Shown here: piece by piece, positions 12,083-30,751 of the stretch
How positions within the stretch are numbered: position 1 is the first letter of the stretch
How the letters are laid out: each line of letters begins with the position of its first letter
NCBI RefSeq assembly: GCF_000008665.1
Contig: NC_000917.1
Location: 1,890,001 to 1,922,000 of the forward strand
Direction: 5' to 3'
Origin: Archaeoglobus fulgidus DSM 4304
GTDB taxonomy: Archaea > Halobacteriota > Archaeoglobi > Archaeoglobales > Archaeoglobaceae
Length of the DNA: 32,000 nucleotides
The notes under the pieces: model-generated
Databases searched by the model: none
What the model saw: the letters and a program-made list of their open reading frames with translations, nothing else
Told to the model about the DNA's origin: nothing
Program-made: the position numbers and the translations under genes

Positions 12083-12084
12083 AC

Positions 12085-13020: not shown

Positions 13021-13021
13021 G

Positions 13022-13321
13022 TTATTTCTCTATAATTCCTCCCCTTATGGCAAGCCTCTCAATCTGGTCTCTCAATTCCTCCAGATTGTCCATAAGCTCT
13101 CTCCAGTTGTCTTCACTGGTAGCATAAGTTTCTCTCAGCTCTCTCAGCCTGAGCTTTATTCTTCTCACCTGATCAGCGTAAATCTCCTCATTCTCTGTGC
13201 CGTAGAACATGTTTCCGATTCTACCGATAGCGGCCCTCAGAAGCCTTATTCTCTCCTCAACATCTCCGCTGTAGTCGAAAGATTCGAGAAGTTCCTCAAG
13301 ATGTTCTTTTATTGAAACCAT
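13022..13321 (-). CDS. Small acidic coiled-coil protein, unknown function
   Basis: 99 aa (HLEELLESF...RRIKLRLRELRETYATSEDNWRELMDNLEELRDQIERL). It is the first gene of a tightly spaced 99aa / MetE-like / MarC string with 1-2 nt gaps. An AT-rich box lies about 30 nt upstream. Confidence 0.6.
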   Translation of the reverse strand: MVSIKEHLEELLESFDYSGDVEERIRLLRAAIGRIGNMFYGTENEEIYADQVRRIKLRLRELRETYATSEDNWRELMDNLEELRDQIERLAIRGGIIEK

Positions 13322-13365
13322 ATAATTGAGTTATTTTCCTGTTAAAAAATTTTGCACCTGACAAA

Positions 13366-14190: not shown

Positions 14191-15149
14191 TCAACCACCC
14201 TCTGCATAGCTTCCCACTCAACCTCCCTTTTTCTGACAAAGGAGAATAAAGCTCTTACTGCGGCATACTGTAGCATGATTGTGTGGATGAAAAGTCCGAG
14301 AGTCACCTTTACTTTGGAAAGTCTGCGGAAGTGGTAGATAAGCAGGAGAGGAGAAAGGAGAAGAAGGGGCAGGAAAAGGATGGGTATGAAGGTGAGGGTG
14401 AGAGCCATGTACCAAGAGAGCCTCACTCCCCACGGGGCCTTCCTCATTTCCTTCCTGTACCTCCACAGCTGCAAACCCCCGTAATACCACCTCTTTCTCT
14501 GGTTGTAGAGGTCTTTCCATGTTAGCGGAGACTGCTCGTATATTTTTGATGTTCTGACGAGAATTGCCCTTCTCCCTTTAGCATGCATTCTTGTCGCAAA
14601 GTCGGCGTCCTCGGCAACAGCCCACTCGTTCAGCCCCTCCTCCATCAAAAACTTTGCCCTCAAAACCCCAATTAAACCGTTAAATTGCCTGAACCTGCTT
14701 TTCCCAAGGAGGAAGTTGATTAGGTAGTACTCGGCCTCAACAGTCTCGGTGACAAGGTTGATGGGGTTGCTGATGTACCTCTTTGTTGAAGCTATGTAGC
14801 AGTCCTCGCAGCCCTCAAGGGCTTTGACGCACTCAACCACGAAGTTCTTCTCGGGCCTCGAATCTACGTCGAAGATTGCTACGTAGTCTGGTTTGAAGCT
14901 GGAGAGGCGCTTGATGGCATCGTTTATAGCCCCAGCCCTCTTCCCCCTTCTGTCCTTCCTGAAAACAACCTCTGCTCCGAGTTTCTCAGCCAGCTCAGCC
15001 CTTCTGTCATCCTTACCGTTGGAGTCAATTACATAGACAAACCTCACTTCAAAATCATCGTAGTCAAGGGACTTCAGGTGCTCGATGCTTCTTCTGATTA
15101 TTTCCTCATCCTCAAAGGGCGAGACGGGAACAACTACGGCCAGCCTCAT
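14187..15149 (-). CDS. Family-2 glycosyltransferase with processive-type motifs and C-terminal TM segments
   Basis: 320 aa with the D...DxD (FDVDSRP), AEDAD and QRKRW (QxxRW) motifs. Hydrophobic C-terminus [23 protein letters not shown]. The start overlaps the gatB stop (15146..15149). Confidence 0.85.
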
Positions 15150-16561
15150 GAGAGCATTTCTTCTATGAGCTTTGCCGTATCAGCAGGATCAGCCCTTCCG
15201 CGAGTTTTTTTCATAACCTGCCCGACGAGGAAGTTCAGGGCCTGCCTCTTTCCGCTGAGGTAGTCCTCAACAGCCTTCGGATTCTCCTCAATGGCCTCTT
15301 TGCAGAATTTTATGATTTCTTCCTTTGGAATGGCGAAAAGCCCCTTCTTCTGGATGATTGCATCAATCTCTCCACCCTCATCAAGCTTCGTCCTTATGAC
15401 CTCAACAACTCCCTTCTCCGTTATCCTATCCTCTTCGAAGTACTTCAGCAGCTTGGCAAACTCCTCCGGCTTGAAAACCTCCCAGCACTTGGCAAAGCTC
15501 CAGTCTCTGTAATTAAGCTCTCCTCTCAGCACGTCAACAATCCAGCTTGCCGCAAGTTTTGGATCAACCAGCTTCGCAACCTCTTCAAAGTAGTCTGCCA
15601 TCTTTACGTCGAGAATCAGCACCTTGGCAAAGTTATCACCAATGCCGTACTGCCGCTTTAGCCTCTCCCTCTTCTCCTCTGGCATTTCTGGCAGAGTGCC
15701 CTCAACCTCCCTGACAATCTCCTCCGTAAGAACCGGCACCAGATCAGGCTCGGGGAAGTAGCGGTAGTCCTGCTCTTCCTCCTTGCTTCTGAGCGAAACC
15801 GTGATGTTCCTTGCTTCATCAAAGTGCCTCGTTTCTCTAACAACACTTCTCCCCCTCTGCAGGAGGTTCTTCTGCCTCATAATTTCGTAGCTCAGGGCCT
15901 TTTCAACGCCCTTGAAGGATGAAATGTTCTTTATCTCCACTCTGCCACTCCCTCTGATGGAGATGTTGGCATCAACCCTCATGGCCCCCTCCAGATCCCC
16001 ATCGAAGACTTCGAGATACTCAAGAATCATCCTGAGCTTGTTCAGGAAAAGCCTCGCCTCCTTGGGCGAGTTCATCACCGGCTCTGTAACAATTTCAAGC
16101 AGAGGGGCGCCGCTTCTGTTGTAGTCGATGAGAGAGTACTTTGCCGTCGTAATCGAACCTTTGTAGCTGAGCTTTCCAGGGTCTTCCTCCATGTGCACCC
16201 TCTTGAGCTGAATTCTCTTCTCCTGACCGTCGAGCTCAATGGTGACGTAACCACCAAGGGCCAAGGGGCGGTCGTACTGGCTGATTTGAAATCCTTTCGG
16301 CAAATCGGGGTAGAAGTAGTTCTTCCTGTCGAAGACTGTGAAGGGCTGTATTTCTGCGTTTAAGGCCATGGCCACCTTCACAGCAGCTTTAACAGCTTCC
16401 TTGTTGATGACGGGCATAGCCCCCGGCATTCCGAGGCATACTGGACAGACGTGGGTGTTGGGAGGGCTTTGGTGATAGTTAAGGGGGCATGAGCAGAAAA
16501 GTTTAGTTCTGAGCCTGTTAAGCTGAACGTGAACCTCAAGCCCTATCACGACGTCATCCAT
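15146..16561 (-). CDS. gatB: Asp/Glu-tRNA(Asn/Gln) amidotransferase subunit B
   Basis: [15 protein letters not shown]...[13 protein letters not shown]... is the canonical GatB N-terminus. I chose the start at ATG 16561. The track ORF extends to 16624, across the divergent alkA promoter. Confidence 0.93.
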
Positions 16562-16600
16562 AATGGCTGCACTAAAAGGCGTATTAAAAAGGTTGTGAAC

Positions 16601-17488
16601 ATGTGGAGAATTGAGCTGAAGCATGCGGTAAACTGGGAACTGAAGATGAAATTCTTCGTTCTGCCTGAGCTGCCTACTCCGGATGTTGTTGAAAGCGGTG
16701 TGTGGAGAAGAGCCATCGTGCTGGATGGCAGGGCAGTTGCGGTGATGGCTTATCCGGAGAGTGAGAGAACGATTGTGGTTGAGGGGAATTTTGAGAATAG
16801 GGAGTGGGAAGCGGTCAGGCGTAAGCTTGTCGAATACTTAGGCCTGCAGAATCCGGAGGAGCTTTACAGGTTTATGGACGGTGATGAAAAGTTAAGGATG
16901 CTAAAAAACAGGTTCTACGGGTTTGGCAGGGCTGGTTTGATGTCGATGAGCGTTTTTGAGGGCATTGCCAAGGCCATCATACAGCAGCAAATCTCTTTCG
17001 TAGTTGCGGAGAAACTTGCTGCAAAAATTGTTGGGAGGTTTGGTGATGAGGTTGAATGGAATGGGCTGAAATTTTACGGCTTTCCCACTCAGGAGGCCAT
17101 TCTGAAAGCTGGGGTAGAGGGGCTGAGAGAGTGCGGGCTGAGCAGGAGGAAGGCGGAGCTGATTGTGGAGATTGCCAAGGAGGAGAATCTGGAGGAGTTG
17201 AAGGAGTGGGGTGAAGAGGAGGCATACGAGTATCTCACTTCCTTCAAGGGCATAGGCAGGTGGACAGCTGAGCTTGTTCTGTCAATGGCCCTCGGCAAGA
17301 ACGTTTTTCCAGCAGATGATCTTGGCGTGAGGAGGGCGGTTTCAAGGCTTTACTTCAATGGGGAGATTCAGAGTGCGGAAAAAGTGAGGGAGATTGCGAG
17401 GGAGAGGTTTGGCAGGTTTGCGAGGGACATACTGTTCTACCTCTTTCTCTACGACAGATTTTTTAGTAAAAAGACAGAATTAGTTTGA
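16601..17488 (+). CDS. alkA: DNA-3-methyladenine glycosylase, AlkA type (HhH-GPD superfamily)
   Basis: HhH motif [13 protein letters not shown] followed by the catalytic-Asp context [11 protein letters not shown]. Starting at ATG 16601 (MWRIELK...) gives 295 aa, which matches my recollection of the characterised archaeal AlkA length. Confidence 0.88.
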
Positions 17489-18039
17489 TGTTCCCCGAAA
17501 TCGAGGAAATCAGAAGAAAGAGGAAAAAGCTTGGTTTGAGTCAGAAAAAGCTTGCCGAGCTCGTCGGGGTGAGCCAGCCCTTAATAGCGAGAATCGAAGC
17601 AGGAAAGTTTGACCCCAAGCTTTCTTTGGTCAAGAAAATGCTGAGAGTTCTCGAGGAGATTGAAGGGGGCAGGGTGGAGGCGAGGGTTGTGATGAACTCC
17701 CCCGTGATTTTCGTATCGCCGAGCGACTCATTAAAGACCGTTGCAGAGCTTATGACCGAGAAGGAGATATCACAGCTTCCCGTTATGGAGAATGACAAGC
17801 TCGTAGGCGGGGTAACCGAGGCCGATGTGGTTAGGGCTGTGCTGGAGAAGGGAGAGGGGGCGGAGAGCATAAGGGTAAGGGAAGTTATGGGTGACCCCTT
17901 TCCTGTAGTTGATCCGGAAGAGAGCGTTAACGTTGTTTCTAAGCTTCTAATGGAGCATCCTGCGGTGTTAGTTGTTCAGGGAGAGAAAGTCGTGGGAATA
18001 ATCACGAAGCAGGATGTGATGAGGTTTTTGACGAAGTGA
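17485..18039 (+). CDS. Transcriptional regulator: XRE-type HTH plus a tandem CBS pair
   Basis: LGLSQKKLAELVGVSQPLIARIEAG forms the HTH. Two CBS-like repeats follow (VMNSPVIFVSP...QLPVMENDKLVGGVTEADV and VMGDPFPVV...VLVVQGEKVVGIITKQDV). The start (TTG 17485 or ATG 17488) overlaps the alkA stop. Confidence 0.85.
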   Translation: MMFPEIEEIRRKRKKLGLSQKKLAELVGVSQPLIARIEAGKFDPKLSLVKKMLRVLEEIEGGRVEARVVMNSPVIFVSPSDSLKTVAELMTEKEISQLPVMENDKLVGGVTEADVVRAVLEKGEGAESIRVREVMGDPFPVVDPEESVNVVSKLLMEHPAVLVVQGEKVVGIITKQDVMRFLTK

Positions 18040-18086
18040 GTTAATAATAACCATGATAATAATCTTAATCATTTTTTATGGAAAAA

Positions 18087-18094
18087 TTTAAATT
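18087..18094 (+). promoter_or_regulatory. TATA-like box (TTTAAATT) for the Leu-rich microprotein gene
   Basis: It is centred about 25 nt upstream of the ATG at 18115, which is the spacing expected for a leaderless archaeal transcript. The T-run ATTTTTTAT (18071..18079) just upstream probably terminates the HTH-CBS gene. Confidence 0.45.
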
Positions 18095-18114
18095 CTTTGT
18101 GAACTATAGTGTGT

Positions 18115-18297
18115 ATGGGGTTCCTGAGCAGCTTGTTGAGTGGCCTTTTAGGACTTTTGCAACCAATGCTGGAGCAGCTTCTTCAAACCGAGCTTGGACA
18201 GCAACTGTTGATGTTTTTGCTCAGCCTGATGAGCCAGCTGCCACCCGGACTGGTTGAGTTTCTGAACAACCTGCTTGGAATGCTTGGACTCGGTTAA
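18115..18297 (+). CDS. 60-aa extremely Leu-rich acidic microprotein, possibly a two-helix membrane hairpin
   Basis: MGFLSSLLSGLLGLLQPMLEQLLQTELGQQLLMFLLSLMSQLPPGLVEFLNNLLGMLGLG has 23 Leu, 8 Gly, 6 Gln, 3 Glu and no K/R/H/D. There is no underlying nucleotide tandem repeat. It has its own TATA-like box and a T-rich 3' flank. The track ORF starts at GTG 18109. Confidence 0.55.
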   Translation: MGFLSSLLSGLLGLLQPMLEQLLQTELGQQLLMFLLSLMSQLPPGLVEFLNNLLGMLGLG

Positions 18298-18350
18298 TGA
18301 AAATAATTTAATTTATCCTTTGTATTTTTTATAAATCAGAGTCTCTACAC

Positions 18351-20576
18351 TCATCCCTCTCCGCATCCAGCTATCCAATTGAAGTCCCAACCTGGATTGT
18401 CACGAGAACTCTGTTCCATCAGCGGAATCTCTTTTAGCAGAGTTACCACCACTTCCGTAAGCTGGTCAAGAAGTTGGAGCATTCTGTAGCCAAAAATCTC
18501 TCTTTCACTGTAAGAAAGGTACTGTCTGTGATTTAGCAGGTAGTTGATACCCGTACTGGCGTCAGGTGGACCGACCACATTTGGCAGCTGCAATAGAACT
18601 TCCGAAATCAGATTTCCGAGTGCATTGTTGAGAGTTGAGTTCAGCATTATTCTGTGGACGATTTCGAAGTTATCTTTAAACTGGACAAACGTCGAAATTA
18701 TGAAGGGGTGGTTGACTGTCTTACCGCAGTTAACCACCAGCCAGAGCACCTCGTGCATGTATGGCAGGAAGTCCGTTATAAAATCATTGAAGGCTCTGTT
18801 CAGATTCACAACATCGCTCTGGGTTGGATATCTCAAGCTCCAAGCAGCCAGCTCTTCACCTGTCGTTTTTGCGATGTAAACAGCATTGTTCAGCAAGTAA
18901 TAGAGCCACGTGTCCATGTAGTTCCTCCAGCCTGCCTCGTCACTCGGATAGTTCGGAACGGTTGTGACGATGGCTGTGAATGGATGTATTCCATAGCGGT
19001 GCCCCATCATAATCCCTATGGCATGCTCGTTGTCAGCAATTAGTCCCACAAAGCCGACGACGCCGAGACCGCCTTTTGGATCTGCAAATAACCCCAACGC
19101 TCCATGAGTTAAGGCCTGTTCAGTTGAGGGGTTTAAAGCACCACAACCAGCATTTGAAACCAGTACACCGTATGGGCCCTCGTGCTGGTCGTAGTGTGTC
19201 GCTCTCATGAAGTCGTCGAGTTCGCCCCCGCCGAAAAGCTGAATGACCATCGCAGCCAGAAAACCAAGTGCGTGGTCGGGTATGTTCATCTGGACAAAGG
19301 GACCTACCCTGTAACCCGAAAAGTAAGTACAATCGTGTCTTCCTTTAAGCGGACCATCTGGGTCACCGTAACAAGCCCCTCCAACGTCTCTACCACACAT
19401 AGGCGTGGTACTTCCAACAGCAATACACGCTCCATCCCAGTCAGCGTCGTCAAAGTTGCCGTAAATACCCTCCCTGTGGCAGTTGGGGTCTGTGCAGTAG
19501 TCATCTAACCCATACTTCCAGATTGTAACGCTGGCTCTGTTTCCAGTAAACTTTTGAACCACGGGAATTGGATACGGTTTCAGCACGGAGTTCTCATCAA
19601 CGTACCAGTTCACCCTCACCCAGTCCGCCCCGCCTGAGTAGTACATTCTGCCGACGAGGGTTATGTCGTAGCTTCCGGGGGTTATGGCAACGTTCTCGGC
19701 CAAAATCGCACGATTGGTTGTTGTGGTGTAGGCGTTGCAGTTAGTCATCACGTCCTCAATTTTAGCAACAAAATTCACTCTCAACTTGTCACTCAGTCCA
19801 ACATTCTTTGGAATGAAGCTAAGTTTAGCGATGCCGCTCGAATTCGTCCAAGCCCCTCCCAAGAATATCCTCTGCGAGTCGAACTCCGCGTAAAACTTGA
19901 CGGGATAATCGGGAACAGGGTTGCCGTTGCTCACAACTTTTGCGTATAATGTTATCGTGTCGGTGTCGAAGAAGCCGTCGTAGTTTCTCGGATTCCCTTC
20001 AGCCTTCACGACGCTTACCGGAAGCGGGTTGGCAACGCTGACCTCGATCTCTACGTAGTCTGACGTCGGATGAGTATACTCCAAACTTCCGTCATGCCCT
20101 ACCGCCAGAATGTGTGCCTCGCAGCTCGCTGTAAAGCTACCGCTTATCCAAGTCCAACTCCCGCTGGTCGTTTCTTCTAATTTCTGCCAGCTGCTACCGT
20201 CCCAGTAGTAGAGCGTGACGTAATCGCCATCCTCCTGCGCGTGTCCCCTCCACCTCACGACGACGTTTGCGTTCTGAGGGATGCTGAAGTAGAAGTGGTG
20301 GGTGTCCTGACCTCCCGAACTGAAACCGCTGCTGTCAGGGCTTTCAATGAGGTCGATATCAGCTTGCGTGAAGGGCGTCCTGTCGCTCGTGTAGTAAGGG
20401 TTGCTCGGAAGGTCTCTCGTGTCCCTGTGCCAAGCTTTTGGGTGAGGCGAGTCCGGAGTAACCTCAAGTCCGCCTATGGAGGAGAAATTAACTGTATACG
20501 TTTTGGCGTCGGCTATATGCGAAATCTGAATAAGTAAAGCTAAAGCTAAGATTATAATTATTTTCACACTTTTCAC
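18351..20576 (-). CDS. Large secreted multidomain protein, unknown function (signal peptide, beta-rich N-terminal modules, Cys-rich core, helical C-terminus)
   Basis: 741 aa. Signal peptide MKSVKIIIILALALLIQISHIADA/K. Ig-like-looking segment ITLYAKVVSNGNPVPDYPVKFYAEF...GGAWTNSSGIAKLSF. Cys cluster DDYCTDPNCHREG...DGACIAVGSTTPMCGRDVGGACYG...HDCTYF. No C-terminal TM. GTG start, with an AT-rich TATA-like region at 20592..20605. Confidence 0.85.
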   Translation of the reverse strand: MKSVKIIIILALALLIQISHIADAKTYTVNFSSIGGLEVTPDSPHPKAWHRDTRDLPSNPYYTSDRTPFTQADIDLIESPDSSGFSSGGQDTHHFYFSIPQNANVVVRWRGHAQEDGDYVTLYYWDGSSWQKLEETTSGSWTWISGSFTASCEAHILAVGHDGSLEYTHPTSDYVEIEVSVANPLPVSVVKAEGNPRNYDGFFDTDTITLYAKVVSNGNPVPDYPVKFYAEFDSQRIFLGGAWTNSSGIAKLSFIPKNVGLSDKLRVNFVAKIEDVMTNCNAYTTTTNRAILAENVAITPGSYDITLVGRMYYSGGADWVRVNWYVDENSVLKPYPIPVVQKFTGNRASVTIWKYGLDDYCTDPNCHREGIYGNFDDADWDGACIAVGSTTPMCGRDVGGACYGDPDGPLKGRHDCTYFSGYRVGPFVQMNIPDHALGFLAAMVIQLFGGGELDDFMRATHYDQHEGPYGVLVSNAGCGALNPSTEQALTHGALGLFADPKGGLGVVGFVGLIADNEHAIGIMMGHRYGIHPFTAIVTTVPNYPSDEAGWRNYMDTWLYYLLNNAVYIAKTTGEELAAWSLRYPTQSDVVNLNRAFNDFITDFLPYMHEVLWLVVNCGKTVNHPFIISTFVQFKDNFEIVHRIMLNSTLNNALGNLISEVLLQLPNVVGPPDASTGINYLLNHRQYLSYSEREIFGYRMLQLLDQLTEVVVTLLKEIPLMEQSSRDNPGWDFNWIAGCGEG

Positions 20577-20694
20577 GAAAATTCGATAATCAAATTAATT
20601 ATTAAATGTTTCGTATTGTTGATGGTAATGATAAAGTAAATTATCCCCAGTTTTTCGAACTAAGCCTGAAGAGCTTATTTGTTACCAAAAAGCT

Positions 20695-21147
20695 TTAGGT
20701 GTAAATCAACGAGAATTTCTTCCCCAACTCAGCCAGTGCCGCAAACATCCACTTGAAAAACTGCAGCGCATTGTATGTCAAGTTCGGTGCCTGATTCTGG
20801 CAGTAACCTCCAGTCTGAATGCACTCGTAGCTTTTCCTCCAGATGTAGGCTATACCCCAGTTTGCGTTATCGTCTCCAAACACGTAGGTGGCATTTCCAG
20901 CAACCTTCTGCCAGATTCCTACACTGTAGCGCATCATCGTGTCATTCGCAGAAACTATGTTCACTGTATCCCTGAAAACATCTGAAAAGTACTTCAAAAA
21001 GCCGGAAATGTAGTAGATGCTCTCAGCAGTTTTCTCGGCAAGAGTGTCGTTTACAGCAATTGCCCTCATCACCTCAGCGTTTAGCATGAAAAGCCACTGA
21101 AAGAAATCTATGAAGTACGAGAAGGCAATCCAGACGTCAAGCGGCAT
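20695..21147 (-). CDS. Paralog 4 of an unrecognised ~145-aa protein family
   Basis: 150 aa. Shared core AGNATYVFGDDNANWGIAY. An SD-like GGTGATGGAGG lies directly upstream and overlaps the stop of paralog 3. A T5 run follows the stop. Confidence 0.8.
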   Translation of the reverse strand: MPLDVWIAFSYFIDFFQWLFMLNAEVMRAIAVNDTLAEKTAESIYYISGFLKYFSDVFRDTVNIVSANDTMMRYSVGIWQKVAGNATYVFGDDNANWGIAYIWRKSYECIQTGGYCQNQAPNLTYNALQFFKWMFAALAELGKKFSLIYT

Positions 21148-21153
21148 CCTCCA

Positions 21154-21624
21154 TCACCCCGGAAAGTAATTGGGAAACACCTTGAGCGCATCGGCCATCA
21201 GTATCACCAGATGCTTTGCCGCATAATACAGATTTGAAACGAAGTCCGGGTTGTTTGAAACGCTCTCCGCCATCACTTTTACCAAAAAGGCTGTCCCATT
21301 ATCCCCTGAAACATCCCCAAATATGTATGTCCCGTTTTTTGCAGCAATCTCAACCACTTCAGCAAACTCATTCTCAAGCGTTGCGTTGTGGTTAATCTGC
21401 CAGATAAACCCATTCGTATCGAAAAGGAGCTTTCTGAACCATGAAATTGCCGCATCAACGTGGTACCAAATCTCCCAGAAGCTCTGATAGTTCCCCCTCG
21501 AAGCGTTGAGAGTGGTTTCGTTGTTCCCCACGTATTTTAGATAGATGAAAAAGTCGCCGAGAGCCCTGAGCAGTGCGGAGAGGCCCTGCAGCATCACGTT
21601 GCCAAGCTCGGCTGCTGTTGGCAT
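21154..21624 (-). CDS. Paralog 3 of an unrecognised ~145-aa protein family
   Basis: 156 aa. Shared core [19 protein letters not shown]. The upstream GAGGTGAT overlaps the stop of paralog 2. Confidence 0.8.
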
Positions 21625-21633
21625 TCGATCACC

Positions 21634-22062
21634 TCACAGGTACTCAAAAACTTTCACAAAGTAGATTATCGTGCTATTCACCGCCCTCGCAAATTTCACC
21701 GCCATATCCTCTGAAAGCTGCTGGTTTTGACTAAGCTCGATGTAGGAGTGCTTGGCAATGTAGGCCATCCCGCTCTCCCCCTCAACCGTGCCGAAAAAGT
21801 GGTAGGAGTTCTCCGACAGAGTGTGGAGGACATCGGTGAAATTTGCCATCGCAGTAGCATTGTTTGCGGTAACACCGAGAATTGTCGCCAGAAACTTTGT
21901 TCCCCACAGCAGAAGGGATAGCTGCCCGTAAATGAAATTAGTATGTTCTGGAATGAGATGCGCATTTATGGGCTCAAGCAACCCGTAAATCAGGACAAAG
22001 ATGTCTGATATTGGCCTTAGAATCGCATTTAAGGCAAAATCTGTCGCTGCTGCTATGGGCAT
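21634..22062 (-). CDS. Paralog 2 of an unrecognised ~145-aa protein family
   Basis: 142 aa. Shared core SENSYHFFGTVEGESGMAY. The upstream GAGGTGA (22067..22073) contains the TGA stop of paralog 1. Confidence 0.8.
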   Translation of the reverse strand: MPIAAATDFALNAILRPISDIFVLIYGLLEPINAHLIPEHTNFIYGQLSLLLWGTKFLATILGVTANNATAMANFTDVLHTLSENSYHFFGTVEGESGMAYIAKHSYIELSQNQQLSEDMAVKFARAVNSTIIYFVKVFEYL

Positions 22063-22066
22063 TCCA

Positions 22067-22498
22067 TCACCTCAGCGTTGAATTGATGTTTTCAAGCATC
22101 CTCATCGCCACCTCCACACCGCTCTTGGCTAAATTCCAAACCTTCAAGGCGAATTCATCATCAATCAACCCCACAAAATGGCTCATTACCGCAGACAGAC
22201 CCTTCTGACCAGTTTCGTTGCCAAAAATCGTTTCCGCGTTCCCTCCAATATAGTTTATCGCGTAGCTGATGTTCTTCATCGCGGAAACGTTTTTGGATGC
22301 AACATCTAAGGCTCCTCCATCCCCTACAAAGGGCTTGATGAACCAGTAACCGAATCCTGCAGCGTGAATTGAAACATTCCACACTTCCGCAACATCAACA
22401 GAGTTGTTAAGCAATAAGCTGAATGCGTTCGTCAGCAACTCGAAATTGGCCAGAACAATCTGCATTAAGGCGTTGGCGAAGTCTGCTGCGTTTGCCAT
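22067..22498 (-). CDS. Paralog 1 (first gene) of an unrecognised ~145-aa protein family
   Basis: 143 aa. Shared core GGNAETIFGNETGQKGLSA. There is no SD. A TATA-like TTTTTTATTAG is centred about 25 nt upstream of the ATG. Confidence 0.8.
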   Translation of the reverse strand: MANAADFANALMQIVLANFELLTNAFSLLLNNSVDVAEVWNVSIHAAGFGYWFIKPFVGDGGALDVASKNVSAMKNISYAINYIGGNAETIFGNETGQKGLSAVMSHFVGLIDDEFALKVWNLAKSGVEVAMRMLENINSTLR

Positions 22499-22517
22499 TG
22501 GAGAGATTTGTCATTAT

Positions 22518-22528
22518 CTAATAAAAAA
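22518..22528 (-). promoter_or_regulatory. TATA-like box of the four-paralog operon
   Basis: The minus strand reads TTTTTTATTAG, centred about 25 nt upstream of the ATG at 22498. Confidence 0.45.
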
Positions 22529-22607
22529 CTTTTCGCATTGTTAGAATTAAATGTTATGATGAGCATCAACACTTATTTGCTCTATGACTGATTTTTTCAG
22601 AGCCATG

Positions 22608-23036
22608 CTAATTATTGGCCTTTCTGTAATCTACGTAGCTCTTAACGAAGTCTCTCACCATCCCGTAAAACAGCTTTGCTGAGAAGTAAAGGACAGCAAC
22701 GGGCAGCACGATGCTTAAGGAGTTCTCGACTCCGAGAAACTGCAATGCAACGATATAGGGAGAGAGAAGGAGGAAGTAAAGCGGTGTGAAAAAGGAAATT
22801 TTCCTGAAGAAGACTCTGCCGTAAATTTCGTTCATCATGTCCTGAAAACCCCTGTAAGCCTCTCTATCACCCGACAGCATGGCAAGCATGGAAAGCTCCT
22901 TGTATTCCTCAATTTCAGCCTCCATTCTGGCAATATCAAGCACGTAGCTGCTGAAAAATCTGATTGCCACTAATTCCTCAATTTTCTCAACAATAACTGC
23001 TACGAGCAGAGTTAAAAAAATTAAGAAATAGTTCAT
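22608..23036 (-). CDS. Small three-TM membrane protein with a long amphipathic or coiled-coil loop
   Basis: About 142 aa from ATG 23036: MNYFLIFLTLLVAVIV-EKIEELV...ARMEAEIEEYKEL...-FFTPLYFLLLSPYIVALQFL-...SIVLPVAVLYFSAKLF. The start overlaps the stop of the TauE-like gene (ATGA at 23033..23036). The track's longer 208-aa version reads through that gene in another frame. Confidence 0.65.
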   Translation of the reverse strand: MNYFLIFLTLLVAVIVEKIEELVAIRFFSSYVLDIARMEAEIEEYKELSMLAMLSGDREAYRGFQDMMNEIYGRVFFRKISFFTPLYFLLLSPYIVALQFLGVENSLSIVLPVAVLYFSAKLFYGMVRDFVKSYVDYRKANN

Positions 23037-24055
23037 GGTGGAAGCTTGATTCCGAAGAATGCGCTCAGCACGTACCTCGTTCCGACGTAGAGGGCAAGGA
23101 TGCCGAAGAGGGCGAAGAGAGCATCTTGCGGGATGTACTTCTGAGTTCTCGGACCAATGTAGCTGCCGATGAATATTCCTGCCCATCCAGCAACGATGAG
23201 GGCCACAGGATACATCACTCCCCTTGCCAGCCATCCAAGTACAGTTGATGTCTGTGTAAAGAACACTGCAAGCGTTGAAGCTCCGGGAACGACGTAGAAG
23301 GGCAGTCCGAGGCTCGTCAGGAACGGGACGAAGAGGAATCCGCCTCCAATTCCTATCACTGCGGAGAACAATCCAATCAGGAAGCCGACGATGAAAGGTG
23401 CGAAGTTCTTCACTCTGAAGCTTTCGCCGAAGAACTCGAAGGTCGTCTCGCTAAGGCCAACCTTCAGGTTCTTGATGCCCTCAAGCTCGTGCAGCCTTCC
23501 GCTCTCTCTGAGCTCCTTAACCTTCTGCTGGAACCTCTGTGCAGCCTCTCTTCCGGCCTTCTTTCCCGCCTTGGCCCTTGGTGTGAGCTGGTAGAACATG
23601 TATCCTGCAATCAGATAGGTCGCCAGACCGAACAGGCCTTTATACATTGAAGGAGCAACCTGCCCACCAGTGCCCCACACACCAACCTGAGCACCGATGA
23701 CGGCTCCAAGACCGAGTGCAACACCAGCAGGCCATACGAGTCTCTTCTGAGTGTACCAGTTGTAGGTTGACGACACAGCATTAAACCACGTCTGCACAGA
23801 GTTGCCCAGCCTGATGGTATCTGTCAGGTATTTGCCCGCATCGGTGTAGGAGCCAATGTTAACCTTTGTCCCCTTCAGCTTGCTTGCCCAGTCGCCAATT
23901 CCGAAGATTGTAATGTGGCCGAAACCAGCCATGATACCTCCAAATGCCCCGACGGTTGAGAAAATCCAGCCAACCCAGATGAACCACAGAAAGACCATCA
24001 GGGCATTCACCGTTATAACGTTCCCGTCTATCTCAGCCCATACTACATCCAGCAA
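23033..24055 (-). CDS. TauE/SafE (TSUP, DUF81) family anion permease with an enlarged central cytoplasmic loop
   Basis: 340 aa, polytopic, with the two-repeat architecture STVGAFGGIMAGFG and SAVIGIGGGFLFVPFLT (family GxGGG..VP signature). TTG start at 24055, preceded by a perfect GGAGGTGA (24060..24067) at a 4-nt spacing. Confidence 0.7.
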   Translation of the reverse strand: MLDVVWAEIDGNVITVNALMVFLWFIWVGWIFSTVGAFGGIMAGFGHITIFGIGDWASKLKGTKVNIGSYTDAGKYLTDTIRLGNSVQTWFNAVSSTYNWYTQKRLVWPAGVALGLGAVIGAQVGVWGTGGQVAPSMYKGLFGLATYLIAGYMFYQLTPRAKAGKKAGREAAQRFQQKVKELRESGRLHELEGIKNLKVGLSETTFEFFGESFRVKNFAPFIVGFLIGLFSAVIGIGGGFLFVPFLTSLGLPFYVVPGASTLAVFFTQTSTVLGWLARGVMYPVALIVAGWAGIFIGSYIGPRTQKYIPQDALFALFGILALYVGTRYVLSAFFGIKLPP

Positions 24056-24069
24056 GGTATCACCTCCCT

Positions 24070-24966
24070 TTACTCATCCTCCTTTGGCTTCCTGAAGAGC
24101 AGGAAGTTGCAGAGCTTGCAAATATCGAATCCGGGATAGGTTTCCCCTGTTCTGGGGAAGCTCGCTCCTCCCTGACTTGCAGTTCTCTCAAGGAGTCTGA
24201 CTACCAGCTTCTCGAAGTGAGCCCAAGGTATGAAGACGTTTATCTCGCCCTGCTCCGTTTTTCCTGCCGTGTAGCTGCCACTGCACATGGGAACAATGTT
24301 GATGGTGTTCTCCACGTAGCTCCACACCGCTCCACCGCATGCAGCGGAGTTCATCATGAAGTTGGGTCTGATTGGATGGACGTCCATGGCCGCTGCGTAG
24401 TCGTTGTAGAGGTGGTAGCTCTGCAGAACGTCGCAGATTATGAACACCAGATCAGGCTCAAACTTTGCTTTGTGGAGTGGAGCGGTGGCAAAGGCAAGAA
24501 GTCCTTCAGGCAGCCTTGGCTTGGTCTTTACGAATCTCTCAGCCTGTTCCCTGTCTTTGACATACTTCATGTGGCTCTTGATCTCATTCTCATCGTAGTC
24601 CTTCCAGCCAAAGAGGTAGCGGGCGTTGCTACATCCCAGCGTTCTCCTTTCCCCAAACAGCACATCTCCCTTCTGCCTCGACTCAGCGCAGAAATGGCAG
24701 AAGGTGAAGGGGTTGCATGCTACAAGGTACTCATGCTCCGCCTTGAACTTCTCCACCTCAGCCTCGTCGTAGAAGAACTTCACCGCTACAGGATAGTACT
24801 TCAGCCTCAGCAGGTTTCTAAGAACGAAAACCATGTCGGCTCTGCTCAGCCCTGCTTTGTCCTTCTTTAGCAGCATCGCTTCTGCAAACTTCCTGTCGTC
24901 GAGCAGCACTTCACTGTCGATAAAAACACTGGATTGCTGCATAGTCAGCGGTGATTTCGGATGCAT
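24070..24966 (-). CDS. DUF169-like protein (family assignment from memory of the PVAVKF / Cys pattern)
   Basis: 298 aa with LKYYPVAVKFFYDE, FTFCHFCAES, TLGCSNARYLFG, NSAACGGAVW and VPMCSGS. The start could be the ATG at 24966 or the internal Met at 24942. Confidence 0.6.
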   Translation of the reverse strand: MHPKSPLTMQQSSVFIDSEVLLDDRKFAEAMLLKKDKAGLSRADMVFVLRNLLRLKYYPVAVKFFYDEAEVEKFKAEHEYLVACNPFTFCHFCAESRQKGDVLFGERRTLGCSNARYLFGWKDYDENEIKSHMKYVKDREQAERFVKTKPRLPEGLLAFATAPLHKAKFEPDLVFIICDVLQSYHLYNDYAAAMDVHPIRPNFMMNSAACGGAVWSYVENTINIVPMCSGSYTAGKTEQGEINVFIPWAHFEKLVVRLLERTASQGGASFPRTGETYPGFDICKLCNFLLFRKPKEDE

Positions 24967-24974
24967 TTAAAATT

Positions 24975-25006
24975 TTCGAAATTTTCCAAATGTATTTCGA
25001 AATTTT
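24975..25006. promoter_or_regulatory. Two copies of TTCGAAATTTT, 21 bp apart, immediately upstream of the DUF169-like operon
   Basis: Exact 11-mers at 24975..24985 and 24996..25006. The proximal copy is about 9 nt from the ATG at 24966. Confidence 0.5.
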
Positions 25007-25130
25007 TTGAAAGTTCGGAGTTTTTGCTTGCCTAAAATAGCATTTTAATTAAAAGCTGTAATATATTAAATTATAAGGTAACTGCTTCAAAAAACTCAAC
25101 TTTAAAGGTTAAGTGGATTCAAAAACCATT

Positions 25131-26087
25131 TCAAAAAAGCCGAAAAATTAAAATTATCCGAAACACCTGCACTGCAAAATCTTCGAAAAGCTGCCTCCCC
25201 TTGGCCAGAATGAAGTCAAGATACTCCCTCATCTTTTTGCTCTCCAAAGATAGCTTGGAGGAGACGAGGTAGATATCTCTCTCCGATTTAAAGCCCTCAA
25301 TTTTTCTCATCTTTATCAAGCCAACCTCACACGCCTTGCAGGCTGCGATGAAGGATGTGATGGCAATTCCAATCCCGCTGCTCACCGCATTGATTTTCGA
25401 GTAGAAGTCGCTGACCGTATAAGCAATATCCAGCTCGCTTAGCTTCAATCCGCTCGCCATCAGCGCTTTTTTTGTGCTCGTTGTAATGCCGTAGTTGTCG
25501 TCAAGCATTACTATCGGATATTTCGTAATGTCTTCCAGCGTGACAACAGGCTTCTCAGCAAGCTCGTGGTTTGGCGGTGTGATTAGAACGAGGTGGTCCT
25601 CGCCCAGAACATCGCAGTTGAGCCTGTCGAACTCAAGGTGCTCGTCGAGGATGTCCCCAGCTATAGCGAAGTCGAATTCTCCGCTCAAAACACCCCTAAC
25701 GCACTCATGAGCTCCTCTGAGAGCCACGTTAACCTCAAGCTGTGGGTAGGTGGCCTTCAAAAGAGTTTGAATGGCGTGGACGATGTTCAACCCCACCATT
25801 CCTGAAGCTATGGTTATCTTATCCCCCCTGAGGTTCGAAATCAGCTTTTTGGTCTCCTCAACGCTGCTGAGAATGGACTTCATGTTTTTGATTGCTATCT
25901 TGCCCTCATCTGTCAGCTTTACGCCATTGGTCCCCCTTTCAAGCAGCTTCACCCCATAGAAGGATTCAATTGAGTTAATCTGAAAGCTCACAGAGCTGAC
26001 TGACATTCCGAGGTTCTTTGCAGCCTTCTTCAGGCTTCCCGACTCAACGACCTCCATGAAGGTTTTCATGAAATCGAGCCTAACCAT
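25131..26087 (-). CDS. LysR-family transcriptional regulator
   Basis: MVRLDFMKTFMEVVESGSLKKAAKNLGMSVSSVSFQINSIESFYGVKLLERGTNGVKLTDEGK is a canonical LysR N-terminal HTH, followed by a substrate-binding-domain-sized C-terminus. I chose the start at ATG 26087 by alignment to the usual LysR N-terminus. The track ORF starts at 26105. Confidence 0.85.
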   Translation of the reverse strand: MVRLDFMKTFMEVVESGSLKKAAKNLGMSVSSVSFQINSIESFYGVKLLERGTNGVKLTDEGKIAIKNMKSILSSVEETKKLISNLRGDKITIASGMVGLNIVHAIQTLLKATYPQLEVNVALRGAHECVRGVLSGEFDFAIAGDILDEHLEFDRLNCDVLGEDHLVLITPPNHELAEKPVVTLEDITKYPIVMLDDNYGITTSTKKALMASGLKLSELDIAYTVSDFYSKINAVSSGIGIAITSFIAACKACEVGLIKMRKIEGFKSERDIYLVSSKLSLESKKMREYLDFILAKGRQLFEDFAVQVFRIILIFRLF

Positions 26088-26089
26088 GA

Positions 26090-26100
26090 TTCGAAATTTT
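26090..26100. promoter_or_regulatory. Third copy of TTCGAAATTTT, just upstream of the LysR start
   Basis: Exact 11-mer at 26090..26100, 3 nt upstream of ATG 26087. It lies between the start and the AT-rich TATA-like region at 26110..26135. Its orientation relative to the gene is the same as the two copies at 24975..25006. Confidence 0.5.
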
Positions 26101-26209
26101 TGCATTGGTTTTAAAATTTTTTGAATTTTTATTATCCGTGACAGATTGAGGCAATGCGAATCCCTAAATTATTAAATAACTGACGGAGATTCTTGTCAGG
26201 TGGTTTCAA

Positions 26210-26641
26210 ATGGAGAAGGTCAAACTTGGAATGGTCGTTGCTGAGTTCAACAGGGACATTACCTACATGATGGAGATTCTCGGTAAGGAGCATGCTGAGT
26301 TTCTGGGGGCTGAGGTTAGCGAGGTTATCAGGGTTCCCGGCACCTTCGATATCCCCATTGCCGTAAAGAAGATGCTTGAGAAGGGCAGAGTTGATGCCGT
26401 TGTTGCCATAGGCTGTGTAATCGAAGGAGAGACGGAGCACGATGAGATTGTTGCCCAGCACGCTGCGAGGAAGATCATGGACTTGAGCCTTGAATACGGC
26501 AAGCCCGTAACGCTCGGCATCAGCGGGCCCGGAATGGGCAGGATTGCAGCAACGGAGAGAGTTGATTATGCAAAGAGGGCTGTTGAGGCTGCTGTTAAGC
26601 TTGTCAAGAGGCTGAAGGAGTATGATGCAGAGGGGAGCTAA
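26210..26641 (+). CDS. ribH: 6,7-dimethyl-8-ribityllumazine synthase (archaeal short type)
   Basis: 143 aa. [13 protein letters not shown]...[15 protein letters not shown]...[21 protein letters not shown] fits the lumazine synthase pattern. SD-like GGTGG upstream. Confidence 0.9.
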
Positions 26642-27761
26642 CAGGATTGAGGTAGTCCAGCCTTCAGCCACGCTAAGAGTTTCAACGATGGCAAAGGAGC
26701 TGAAGAGAGAGGGCAAGGACGTAGTGGACATGAGCGTTGGGGAGCCAGACTTCCCCACGCCCGATTTTATCATTGAAGCTGCTTACAAAGCAATGAAGGA
26801 GGGCAAGGTTTTCTACACTCCCACAAAGGGCGTTCCTGAGCTCATTGATGCCATCGTTGAGAAGCTGAGGAACGAGAACGGCATTGATGTTGGAGCAGAG
26901 AACATAATCGTCACGCCGGGGGCAAAGTATGCGATTTTCGAGGCGATGATGTGTTTGCTGCAGGAAGGGGATGAGGTAATACTCCTCGACCCCTCGTGGG
27001 TTAGCTATGAGGCGTGCATTCTGATGGCGGGAGCAAAGCCCGTCTGGGTTCCCCACGAGGAGGGCTTTGAGGATGCCCCCATTGAGGACTACATAACGTC
27101 AAACACGAAAATGATTGTTGTGAATACTCCCAGCAACCCGCTCGGCGTTGTGTATCCCAAGGAGTTTCTGAAGAAGGTAAGGGACTTGGCGGTGGACAAG
27201 GATATCCTCGTGATGAGCGATGAGATTTACGAGAAGATAATCTTCGAGGGCGAGCATTACAGCCTCGCTGCAATGGACGGGATGCTTGAAAGGACAATAA
27301 CAATCAACGGCTTCTCCAAGACCTACTCCATGACAGGCTGGAGGTTGGGGTATGCTGCAGCGCCGGAGTGGATAATCAAGCTCATGAACCGCATGCAGAG
27401 CCATTCTGTCAGCCATCCCACATCTTTCGTTCAGTATGCTGGAGTTGCAGCCCTCAAAGGAGACCAGAGCTTCATAAAGGAGATTGTTGAAGAGTTCAGG
27501 GCGAGAAGGGACATGATAATGGCCAAGCTTGACGAAATGGGTATAGAGTATGCTCCACCTAAGGGGGCCTTCTACATCTTCATGAATGTTGGCAGGGACA
27601 GCAACGAGTTCTGCGAGGAGTTTTTGAAGAGGGAATATGTGGCTCTAACTCCCGGCTCAGCCTTTGGCGTTGCCTACAAAAGCTGGGTCAGGCTGAGCTA
27701 CGCAACTTCGAGGGAGAGGATTGGAGAGTTTCTGAGCAGGCTGGAGAGGTTTTTGGGTTAA
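26622..27761 (+). CDS. Aspartate / class-I PLP aminotransferase
   Basis: 379 aa with [16 protein letters not shown] and the PLP-lysine context [14 protein letters not shown]. It overlaps the 3' end of ribH by 20 nt. Confidence 0.9.
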
Positions 27762-27876
27762 TTTTTATTTTTAATTGTGCTGTACCAGTTGATTTAAACC
27801 TGAAAAGCCCTGCAACTGGAAAATACAAGATGAGAGAGACGATTCGAAACTTAAGAAATATATCCAGCCAGCCAAG

Positions 27877-28029
27877 TCAAATACCAACCCAGAAAACTTC
27901 AGAAGATGGTAGTAGTTCCAGCTGGATAATCCAGGCCACTTTCGGAAATTGTGCCTTGCGCAGAATTAAGAACAAAAAATACGCAAAACCAAAGGCGAGA
28001 ATTACCACACTCAGAAGTTGAAAGGTCAT
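27877..28029 (-). pseudogene. 50-codon C-terminal-module fragment of the decayed membrane-protein paralog
   Basis: My translation: MTFQLLSVVILAFGFAYFLFLILRKAQFPKVAWIIQLELLPSSEVFWVGI, then TGA (27877..27879). A TM-like continuation LGWLDIFLKFRIVSLILYF stays open in frame. It aligns with ...LIGVSVIFLAMFAATWVVLRLFGY...GPILFWLFWV...FFVIRILTF of the 329-aa paralog. The start overlaps the stop of 28026..28325 (ATGA). Confidence 0.5.
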
Positions 28030-28325
28030 TTCAGTTCACTTACGTATTTATTCCTTAGCAACCATAAAAGCAAGGATACAAGGAAGAAAGATACGGGAAG
28101 AACGAAAACCATCAGGTTGCAAAAGCTCTCGCCGAGCAATCGATTGTAGCGGGCATAAGGCATTGTTCCAAACAAGATTGTGAAGATGGAAACGACTGAC
28201 GAGGAAATAAACCGAAGTCTATCCATTCTGCTTCTTGAATAAAGGGTGTAGAGCAGATTCAGCAGGCCAAGAAACGATATGAGGGGTAAGAAATATGAAA
28301 TGAAGAAATTTGTTGTTGCATCCAT
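28026..28325 (-). CDS. 99-aa membrane protein: central fragment of the same paralog family (probably part of a broken gene)
   Basis: The tail SFFLVSLLLWLLRNKYVSELK parallels SPLLSFALLLELLGAYSLQESLK of the 329-aa paralog, and the next fragment continues the alignment after a 1-nt frame change. Confidence 0.55.
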   Translation of the reverse strand: MDATTNFFISYFLPLISFLGLLNLLYTLYSRSRMDRLRFISSSVVSIFTILFGTMPYARYNRLLGESFCNLMVFVLPVSFFLVSLLLWLLRNKYVSELK

Positions 28326-28439
28326 GGCCCATCACCAGATCTACCCCAGAGTTTATTCATTGCAAACGGCTCCAAACCCTGACCCATTCACCATGCTATT
28401 TCTTAGCTTATAAATTTTTCTTTTATTTTAGACAGTTGC

Positions 28440-28618
28440 TCACAACACTTTCTTCAAAGCAATCCTTAAGAACGCTAAAAAGTAGCAGGACAGCGCAGCT
28501 GTCATTGCAAGGCCGCAAAGGTACATCAAGTACCTCTCACGCCGATTTCAACAAAGCTTGACAGGAGGAGCAGTGCTACATCTGTGAAAAGAACTATGTA
28601 AAGGAGTTTGGCGCCCAT
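28440..28618 (-). pseudogene. Two short TM-like ORF remnants (N-terminal part of the decayed paralog)
   Basis: My translation: 28526..28618 gives MGAKLLYIVLFTDVALLLLSSFVEIGVRGT then stop. After a frame change, 28440..28526 gives MYLCGLAMTAALSCYFLAFLRIALKKVL then stop. This mimics the TM1-TM2-basic-motif start of the intact paralogs. Confidence 0.4.
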
Positions 28619-28698
28619 TTTCACGTTACTATTGGCAACGCATGCTGTTAGATTTTTCGATCCTCAACCCGTCACCGCTTACATCAGTTTCCCTTGCG

Positions 28699-29688
28699 TT
28701 AAAAAGTCAGAATGCGGATAACGAAAAATATTCCAATCCCAACAATTGCAGCGTTTACCCAGAAAAGCCAGAAAAGGATTGGACCTTCAACCCTCGCCTC
28801 TTCCACCGCCCGTTGAAGGGTGTCGAAAGAGTAGCCAAAGAGTCTTAGCACCACCCATGTAGCCGCAAACATGGCAAGAAAAATCACTGAAACGCCGATA
28901 AGCGCAAATTTTAGGCTTTCCTGTAATGAATAGGCTCCGAGAAGCTCTAAGAGGAGAGCGAAGGAGAGCAGAGGCGAAGCGAACAGAACAATAGAAAAGG
29001 TCACCATGAGCTCCCTTGAGCCCGTTTTAGCCATCAAATACTGCAGCGCCCCCACGAAGATGTTGAAGAGCGGTGCGAGGATGAAAGCTGTTCTGTGAGC
29101 GGTAATGGTTTTCACGAAGGGCAGGACTTCGGATTTGACCAACATTAAGGATAAAAGCACCAGAACGAGCCCCGCAATGGATAGCTTTGCCCAAAATACT
29201 GAAAAGTTTGCGGAAGCTGCCAGATCATTCTTCAAAAATCGATTGTAGGTGTAAAACAAAACAACGAGGGGGAAAAGGCAGAGCTGAAGTAGCGGGACGA
29301 TGAAGGCAAAGAAGATGATCGGGAACTTGAAAGCCAACGCTAAATCACCCCACTCCAAAACAGCTCCGCAGAGCATCAAGCCCGCCGCCGGGAAGCCGAT
29401 AATTATGTAGCCGAACTTTACAGCCAGATCGCGTTCCTCTTCGCTGAGTTTTGCGTATTCAATCTCTTTAAGCTCCAGAATCCAGATCAGTCCCTCTCTA
29501 AGTCTCAAACCGCGACGTTTGAAAATCAGGTAGATGGAGAGAGCTTCGGACATTAGCACGACTGCCAGAAGAGCTAAAGCGACAGCTATTCTTTCCGGAG
29601 TTAGCTTCTCCTTGGAGACGGTCAGGAATGGGAAGAGAAATGCGCCGATATGGAGGAGAATTAACAGGAGGAGGTTTCTCTTCCACAT
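28699..29688 (-). CDS. Polytopic membrane protein, apparently intact member (329 aa) of a local paralog family, unknown function
   Basis: Roughly 9-10 hydrophobic segments. It shares LTPERIAVALALLAVVLMSEALSIYLIFKRRGL, YNRFLKNDLAASANFSVFW...SEVLPFVK and LRLFGYS...GPILFWLFW blocks with the neighbouring genes. Confidence 0.8.
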   Translation of the reverse strand: MWKRNLLLLILLHIGAFLFPFLTVSKEKLTPERIAVALALLAVVLMSEALSIYLIFKRRGLRLREGLIWILELKEIEYAKLSEEERDLAVKFGYIIIGFPAAGLMLCGAVLEWGDLALAFKFPIIFFAFIVPLLQLCLFPLVVLFYTYNRFLKNDLAASANFSVFWAKLSIAGLVLVLLSLMLVKSEVLPFVKTITAHRTAFILAPLFNIFVGALQYLMAKTGSRELMVTFSIVLFASPLLSFALLLELLGAYSLQESLKFALIGVSVIFLAMFAATWVVLRLFGYSFDTLQRAVEEARVEGPILFWLFWVNAAIVGIGIFFVIRILTF

Positions 29689-29959
29689 GTCCGCATTTAG
29701 CCAGTAAAGCTAAAAAGAGTTGTGTTCTGTCATGGCGATACAGCTACTTTTCTCTCTTAGCTCTCTCCTTTGAACGCACCCTGAACCAGTGTACGGGCTG
29801 AAATACTGCGTACCACAGAAGAATAAGATCTGGATAAAGCCTAAACACCTGTGGTAGTGCAGAAGTAGGTTCCAGCTTGCTACATTGACTTGTGCATATC
29901 GCTGCACGGAATCCACTACACCCGATAGAACAGGCTACCGCTCTCCGCATCGCAACAAC

Positions 29960-30694: not shown

Positions 30695-30751
30695 GGTGTC
30701 ACCATAATCCGACAGAATAAAAATCTTGCAGGTGAGGAAGAGAAAATTGGT

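Follow-up and report, generated by a model that had tools for sequence, protein, structure and literature searches.

On the minus strand of a 32,000-nucleotide stretch of the Archaeoglobus fulgidus DSM 4304 chromosome (NC_000917.1, positions 1,890,001 to 1,922,000; this whole stretch is referred to as the window, and positions are counted from its first letter) lie four short consecutive genes, AF_2123, AF_2122, AF_2121 and AF_2120, whose products are here called P1 to P4. They are followed by AF_2119, which codes for a large protein with a signal peptide, and the products of all five genes are annotated as 'uncharacterized'. The relationship of the four small proteins to one another and to AF_2119, and the form in which they might act together, are the subject of the following analysis, which takes up a first-pass annotation made from the nucleotide sequence alone.

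Organisation and paralogy of the AF_2123-AF_2119 locus

The open reading frames (ORFs) of the four genes, their lengths, core strings and N-termini as well as the intergenic gaps of 4, 9 and 6 nt from P1 to P4 were all reproduced verbatim as first described (Table 1), and the G + C content is unremarkable. The ATG codons of P2, P3 and P4 are each preceded by a GGTGAT-type Shine-Dalgarno sequence overlapping the TGA stop of the gene before, and the claim that these sequences embed the upstream stop codons was thus borne out. The same holds for the claim that only the first gene has a TATA-like box and no Shine-Dalgarno sequence: none is found in the sequence upstream of P1, and the box is centred about 26 nt before its ATG. 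In archaeal promoters, a TATA box at such a distance from the start codon together with a missing Shine-Dalgarno sequence is the established layout of leaderless transcription, and because P1 has both features the P1-P4 transcript would fit this layout, with the box acting as the putative P1 promoter and, as had been predicted, as the single promoter of the four genes. In turn, since a T5 run follows the P4 stop and AF_2119 has a TATA-like box of its own, the four genes form one coupled unit, AF_2119 probably being transcribed separately.

Table 1. Features of the AF_2123-AF_2119 locus. Positions refer to the window; promoter and terminator elements are read from the sequence.
Feature	Position	Strand	Remarks
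P1 (AF_2123)	22067..22498	-	ORF call; 143 aa; stand-alone family domain; 6 N-x-S/T sequons, no signal peptide
P2 (AF_2122)	21634..22062	-	ORF call; 142 aa; paralog
P3 (AF_2121)	21154..21624	-	ORF call; 156 aa; paralog; most conserved orthogroup
P4 (AF_2120)	20695..21147	-	ORF call; 150 aa; paralog
TATA-like box of P1, TTTTTTATTA	22519..22528	-	Stretch CGAAAAG, resembling a transcription factor B recognition element, just upstream
Shine-Dalgarno of P2, GAGGTGAT	22066..22073	-	Contains P1 stop TGA (22069-22067)
Shine-Dalgarno of P3, GAGGTGATC	21627..21635	-	Overlaps P2 stop TGA (21636-21634)
Shine-Dalgarno of P4, GGTGATGGAGG	21148..21158	-	Contains P3 stop TGA (21156-21154)
T5 run	20687..20691	-	Candidate archaeal oligo-T terminator of the four-gene unit; 3 nt past P4 stop
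TATA-like element, ATTTAATAATTAAT	20594..20607	-	About 25 nt before the AF_2119 GTG; putative own promoter
AF_2119	18351..20576	-	741 aa; GTG start; Sec-type signal peptide MKSVKIIIILALALLIQISHIADA; beta-rich and Cys-rich ectodomains; C-terminal family domain
Fifth complete domain copy (AF_2119 residues ~570-721)	18414..18869	-	Hidden Markov model and hhalign

With respect to their relationship, P1 to P4 share no more than 17-24% pairwise identity, and the evidence from BLASTP alone is marginal. In Smith-Waterman comparisons against shuffled sequences, however, five of the six pairs reached z-scores of 5.8 to 8.7 and exceeded all 500 shuffles, the remaining pair, P1 and P4, having a z-score of 2.5. 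When hidden Markov models (HMMs) were built for each orthogroup from the Archaeoglobus orthologs, with the window sequences excluded, the other three window paralogs were in each case the top non-self matches among 200 window ORFs (E-values from 8e-9 to 0.09), and hhalign comparisons of orthogroup versus orthogroup gave E-values from 7e-12 to 0.016. P1 and P4 are the weakest pair and are joined via P2 and P3. Judged by these profile comparisons, AF_2123-AF_2120 are true paralogs, that is, four anciently diverged copies of one domain, so that the paralogy proposed in the first-pass annotation has gained the statistical support on which it depended. Its ungapped core is likewise present in all four proteins, but the pattern given was short by one residue before FG, the corrected form being N-x-[ETY]-x-[IFV]-F-G-x3-[GA]-x2-G-x-[AS]. 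P4 has a C-x7-C pair that is kept in all eight P4-type sequences of an alignment designated A2.

The same domain is found a fifth time at the C-terminus of AF_2119. The HMM of the family, built from a 90-sequence alignment (A4), matches residues ~627-718 of this protein with an E-value of 1.5e-8, the next-best of the 200 window ORFs having an E-value of 2.2. When the last 260 residues of AF_2119 homologs (18 sequences) were compared with A4 by hhalign, the probability was 97.8 and the E-value 8.8e-13 over 140 columns spanning P1 residues 1-142. The family domain is present in every AF_2119 homolog examined, with HMM E-values of 1e-7 to 1e-12 at the C-termini of all large proteins. Apart from it, AF_2119 has a weak Big_1 match plus a Cys-rich region, and no C-terminal membrane anchor could be found in its sequence. 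The precomputed Pfam annotation places PF27237 (AF_1625_C) on the 90%-identity cluster holding AF_2119 and on most AF_2119 homologs; among these precomputed assignments, none of the small proteins carries it.

A sixth domain copy in A. fulgidus, AF_1118, is encoded elsewhere in the genome and bears a signal peptide. Textbook Sec signal peptides are found in 19 of the 90 members of A4, AF_1118 included (18 were flagged by a heuristic, and P0080 was added by eye), these proteins comprising 167-198 aa. Past the predicted cleavage site, the small signal-bearing members align with the extreme N-terminus of P1 to P4. Of note, the A. fulgidus gene AF_1118 (6001..6537 of locus L008) is solitary and is surrounded by housekeeping genes (RpoE, Spt4, ribosomal proteins).

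Family extent, predicted fold and gene neighbourhoods

Scans of the four proteins against Pfam and NCBIfam gave nothing above threshold, and a Pfam scan over all 90 members of A4 gave no consistent match, RP-C_C and GIPC1_GH2 being rejected as below threshold and inconsistent among members. Thus the search for relatives suggested at the outset led to no known family whose function is assigned. When PDB sequences were searched with a profile, the matches were all de novo designed helical proteins, with E-values of at least 0.02, and literature searches on AF_1625, AF_2119-AF_2123 and AF_1118 brought up nothing relevant, 'AF2122' being also part of the name of a Mycobacterium bovis strain. A word-indexed search found 40 proteins, every one of them from Archaeoglobus, and a second search of this kind (alignment A3), with 8000 candidates scored, gave few matches. 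When 1.84 billion cluster representatives were scanned exhaustively with HMMER, 49 clusters were found at E-values of 1e-3 or below; P0081 was among the matches, in support of the fifth copy in AF_2119, and an 826-aa protein was matched via its C-terminus. On the strength of these searches the family is small, its range comprising the Archaeoglobi, one metagenome-assembled genome (MAG) labelled 'Halobacteriota archaeon' and a few related archaeal metagenome contigs.

As regards structure, the AlphaFold2 model of P1 based on the 90-sequence alignment is all-alpha, with a predicted local distance difference test score (pLDDT) of 92.0 and a predicted template modelling score of 0.71; with the 39 Archaeoglobus sequences only, the pLDDT was 62.7, and widening the alignment to 90 sequences mended the model. 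Helices are predicted at residues 4-29, 36-58, 63-91 (kinked), 100-110 and 114-135, the invariant N87...F92-G93...G100 forming the end of helix 3 and the loop into helix 4. A Foldseek search of the PDB with this model gave a best E-value of 1.9 and template modelling (TM) scores not above 0.29, none of the matches being a toxin. A globin-like fold, prompted by the length of the proteins, was rejected because there is no invariant His. The family is therefore best described, on the basis of the model, as a predicted all-helical domain of ~145 residues that was previously undescribed and is without detectable structural relatives. Neither sequence nor fold searches found a characterised relative, and the sole link to a database is the uncharacterised Pfam entry on the large protein.

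Comparison of gene neighbourhoods in A. neptunius, in Archaeoglobus sp. and at ten more loci from Archaeoglobi MAGs shows that, as far as the contigs extend, the order P1-P2-P3-P4 never varies. In every Archaeoglobi locus with enough flank the gaps between the P1 to P4 orthologs range from -4 to +10 nt, and the orthology remains one-to-one up to L004 and L018, the most distant MAGs of the Archaeoglobi. The four are followed by an AF_2119-type protein in the window and at L001, L002, L012, L015, L019, L020, L021 and L023. At L004 (which shares its contig with L022) a large protein is missing, and a signal-bearing ortholog of AF_1118 is encoded 1 nt upstream of P1, as part of the P1-P4 operon; at L018, AF_2119-like and AF_1118-like members both lie next to the four. 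On L026, a distant contig, a protein of 1009 aa with a signal peptide and PA14 and AF_1625_C domains has the family domain at its C-terminal end, and four small signal-less members come directly after it. The dominant pattern across lineages is thus four signal-less members plus one signal-bearing member, and we know of no prior description of such a module.

The chromosomal context LysR-DUF169-TauE ... AlkA-GatB is shared by the A. fulgidus window, A. neptunius and Archaeoglobus sp. UBA230. Between TauE and P1 lies a gene (22608..23036, -) that starts in an ATGA overlap with the stop codon of the TauE-family gene and codes for a predicted three-helix membrane protein of 142 aa with a central charged segment resembling a coiled coil; the protein is conserved at the same place (149 aa) in A. 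neptunius and Archaeoglobus sp. (L001, L002/L003). Its identification as a DUF106/Oxa1-like insertase is unsupported, as there is no Pfam match even at an E-value of 10.

Three further loci deserve mention. Contig L014 (MTLR01000087.1), labelled 'Candidatus Bathyarchaeota archaeon JdFR-04', has ORFs and HMM scores for the four genes identical to those of Archaeoglobus sp. UBA230 (L015, L002) and is most likely a binning contaminant in the MAG labelled as Bathyarchaeota. In an Archaeoglobaceae MAG (L023, 8149..9990), P1 and P4 are each split into two ORFs, through either frameshift errors of the assembly or pseudogenisation of the cluster, and three more family fragments lie nearby. At L024, as a single case, an AF_2119 homolog (8414..9874, -) divergently adjoins a gene for a PMT_2 (GT-C type) glycosyltransferase (10001..12295, +).

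Sequons, export signals and possible assembly

In the 90 family members, N-x-S/T sequons occur at 2.96 per 100 aa, i.e. 2.9 times the composition-shuffled expectation, with 38% of all Asn residues lying in sequons. The control patterns gave 0.87 times (reversed), 1.14 times (Q-x-S/T) and 0.77 times (D-x-S/T) the expectation, and N-x-A/G is depleted at 0.5 times. The main sequon columns, to which P1 N70 and its equivalents belong, are conserved in spite of changes at the middle residue and between S and T; in one of them a sequon is present in 69 of 89 sequences, in the form of 13 triplets. P1 to P4 of the window have 18 sequons in 591 aa, compared with about 0.2 per 100 aa in 14 other window proteins, of which 13 are cytoplasmic and one is the membrane protein TauE. 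As a positive control served a window protein of 274 aa with a signal peptide and a C-terminal membrane anchor (13366..14190, -), which has 12 sequons, or 4.4 per 100 aa. The start of its gene overlaps by 4 nt the end of a gene for a family-2 glycosyltransferase (14187..15149, -), and its product is probably a surface glycoprotein paired with that enzyme. Within the family, the mean sequon count is 4.67 in signal-less and signal-bearing members alike. Since the archaeal oligosaccharyltransferase AglB transfers glycans to N-x-S/T after the outward flip of the lipid-linked glycan (PMC6098224), this enrichment would be the signature of external glycoproteins and points to a location of the family at the cell surface, a pointer that the first-pass annotation had missed.

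With some hesitation, and at less than even confidence, we read the locus as encoding a hetero-oligomer of the cell surface, its four small subunits docking either the C-terminal domain of AF_2119, the large protein, or an AF_1118-type subunit. A hetero-oligomer of the four is the best reading of their fixed order, joint retention and tight gaps and of the unusual hydrophobicity of helices 1 and 5 (see below). The four-subunit assembly proposed at first thus stands as the best reading, on comparative evidence, but was incomplete in that it left out the fifth copy in AF_2119 and the sixth, AF_1118. According to this proposal, P1 to P4 would be produced in a constant ratio by coupled translation of a single leaderless mRNA and would form, together with the homologous C-terminal domain of AF_2119, a pseudo-symmetric four-plus-one hetero-oligomer on the outer face of the cell, the fifth place being filled in other lineages by a small AF_1118-type paralog with a signal peptide. 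In the small subunits, the hydrophobic helices 1 and 5 might constitute a buried core or a membrane-proximal base. The complex as a whole would be a platform that docks or anchors the large protein, itself without a membrane anchor, and with it the variable ectodomain, which is Ig-like and Cys-rich in A. fulgidus and carries PA14 in a distant lineage.

A number of observations weigh against such a complex. No signal peptide is recognisable on P1 to P4, and because their stop-to-stop ORFs leave room for at most 4 codons upstream of the ATGs, none of them can carry a hidden one. The first 10 residues contain on average 0.08 K/R and 1.1 D/E, with no K/R at all in P1 to P4, and the most hydrophobic 19-residue window of the four scores 1.27-1.59 on the Kyte-Doolittle (KD) scale. 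A class III signal, as in type IV pilins, is not apparent either, since the acidic N-termini (MANAADF, MPIAAATDF, MPTAAEL, MPLDVW) have neither a basic leader nor a cleavage motif. As no twin arginine is conserved in the signal peptides of AF_2119 and of proteins of the AF_1118 type, hitch-hiking of the four through the twin-arginine translocation pathway is unlikely. AF_2119 itself is sequon-poor (3 in 741 aa) and, with its apparent own promoter, is parted from P4 by the T5 run. Finally, the four small genes of L026 are not assignable one-to-one to P1 to P4, and therefore their number may be coincidental there; members occur singly, in pairs or in threes at L006, L009 and L025, and at L024 the AF_2119 homolog occurs without the four small genes.

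Part of this evidence would suit a cytoplasmic location of the four, either as a hetero-oligomer or as separate proteins, which would have lost the signal and changed compartment. Their sequons would then have been kept for a structural role, e.g. as Asn/Ser/Thr helix caps, with AF_2119 being related to them by evolution only. Consistent with this are the missing signal peptide and the lack of room for one, the acidic N-termini, the self-contained helical domain of the AlphaFold2 model and the seemingly independent transcription of AF_2119. However, we consider this explanation rather unlikely, as signal-less and signal-bearing members carry an equal sequon load and the enrichment is specific to N-x-S/T, with D-x-S/T, Q-x-S/T and the reversed pattern remaining flat. 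Moreover, the sequons survive changes of the middle residue and between S and T, the grand average of hydropathy (GRAVY) is positive in all four window proteins, which is unusual for cytoplasmic proteins, and a secreted family member stays adjacent across lineages.

Alternatively, the four might be membrane-embedded subunits, helix 1 and perhaps helix 5 spanning the bilayer without any need for a cleavable signal, and might form an anchor or pore that binds the secreted fifth member. It is indeed these two helices that are selectively hydrophobic in signal-less as compared to signal-bearing members (mean KD of 1.10 versus 0.32 for helix 1, p = 1e-9; 0.39 versus -0.09 for helix 5, p = 6e-6), helices 2-4 showing no difference. 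In addition, distant signal-less relatives show values typical of integral membrane proteins, with a GRAVY of 1.0-1.2 and scores of up to 2.7 in 19-residue windows, and sequon density rises from 0.5 per 100 aa up to the end of helix 1 to 3.8 per 100 aa beyond it. In the window proteins, however, helix 1 is under the usual transmembrane threshold and contains charged residues, and the homologous helix of signal-bearing members is amphipathic and clearly soluble. The N-terminal flank is essentially without K/R, the reverse of the charge required for an N-in signal anchor, so that helix 1 as a classical anchor of this kind was rejected for its wrong charge distribution, and several P4-type orthologs have a sequon at residues 3-5. 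Insertion into the membrane is accordingly viewed as a doubtful option.

Still less probable, in our view, is that the four act independently of one another as secreted or surface paralogs, i.e. as a diversified array whose tight spacing serves co-expression only. Such an array would be in line with the extreme divergence of the copies and with copy numbers of 1 to 4 outside the Archaeoglobi. At Archaeoglobi loci with enough flank, in contrast, all four orthogroups are kept in the same order and one-to-one, without lineage-specific expansion, and the coupling through stop-embedded Shine-Dalgarno sequences is conserved; exposed hydrophobic helices furthermore argue for buried interfaces. An origin as the remnant of a virus or mobile element, e.g. 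as helical capsid proteins of a filamentous archaeal virus, might be suggested by small tandem helical paralogs without assigned function, but this idea, like that of a defence island, is effectively refuted and extremely improbable in view of zero PHROGs and PADLOC matches, no viral fold match for the P1 model in BFVD (best E-value 2.7, TM score 0.22), no relative of the family in the 2.9 million contigs of IMG/VR, the chromosomal context conserved in three Archaeoglobus lineages and the unremarkable G + C content.

The surface hetero-oligomer is therefore the reading retained here. In its boldest form, the four signal-less subunits would be exported and N-glycosylated via an unrecognised targeting signal (e.g. 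the acidic N-terminus together with hydrophobic helix 1) or an unrecognised route, and would build with the Sec-exported fifth paralog a hetero-pentameric docking platform of new fold; to this version we give little credence. If glycosylation of the signal-less four were true, however, archaeal export would possess a pathway or signal missed by the predictors, with an effect on secretome annotation. Even on a conservative view, a new domain family is defined, and ~150 residues of PF27237 are linked to stand-alone proteins. With five or six named genes and a confident monomer model, the module is a testable candidate for the attachment of large surface proteins without an anchor of their own. 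Its reach is confined to a narrow lineage.

Elsewhere in the window, a 213-aa ORF without Pfam match (26132..26773, -) overlaps a 143-aa ORF on the opposite strand (26210..26641, +), whose counterpart in syntenic loci is called as a DMRL synthase (riboflavin) gene; the 213-aa ORF is probably spurious. An Rfam scan of the window (1..32000) found no family at gathering threshold.

Comparison with known systems

The closest entry in the databases is PF27237 (AF_1625_C), which stands for an uncharacterised domain in large surface proteins of the Archaeoglobaceae; the C-terminal ~150 residues of these proteins are homologous to the full length of the small proteins. The entry has no assigned function and, in contrast to the family defined here, apparently excludes the stand-alone, signal-less tandem copies.

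By analogy only, the four genes also resemble those of WXG100/ESAT-6 proteins, which are small, helical, diverged tandem paralogs without a classical signal peptide that form hetero-oligomers acting outside the cell. However, there is no similarity in sequence or fold and no W-x-G turn, and the proteins comprise ~145 aa and five or six helices instead of a hairpin of ~100 aa. None of the 90 members has a PF06013-type match and no FtsK-like secretion ATPase is encoded nearby (the neighbours being LysR, DUF169, TauE, AlkA and GatB). To our knowledge, type VII secretion has not been reported from Archaea.

In the ClyA family of multi-component alpha-helical pore-forming toxins (Hbl, Nhe, AhlABC), too, diverged helical paralogs are encoded in tandem operons, and the components co-assemble and keep their hydrophobic helices shielded when soluble. 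These toxins are larger (350-400 aa), with a long bundle and a tongue or head domain, and Foldseek gave no match to them in the PDB. Moreover, the housekeeping-like conserved synteny and the fused surface protein do not point to a toxin in the present case.

With respect to its possible function, the proposed platform is reminiscent of stalk-and-anchor or docking systems at archaeal and bacterial surfaces, such as the anchoring of S-layers by SlaA/SlaB and cohesin-dockerin pairs. We know of nothing published on how large surface proteins without an anchor are attached in Archaeoglobus. The likeness is again one of analogy, for there is no homology to either system, and in the locus described here module and partners are paralogous and the partners are without export signals. 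In all these cases, nevertheless, a large, anchorless, secreted ectodomain would be held via its C-terminal domain by a dedicated partner.

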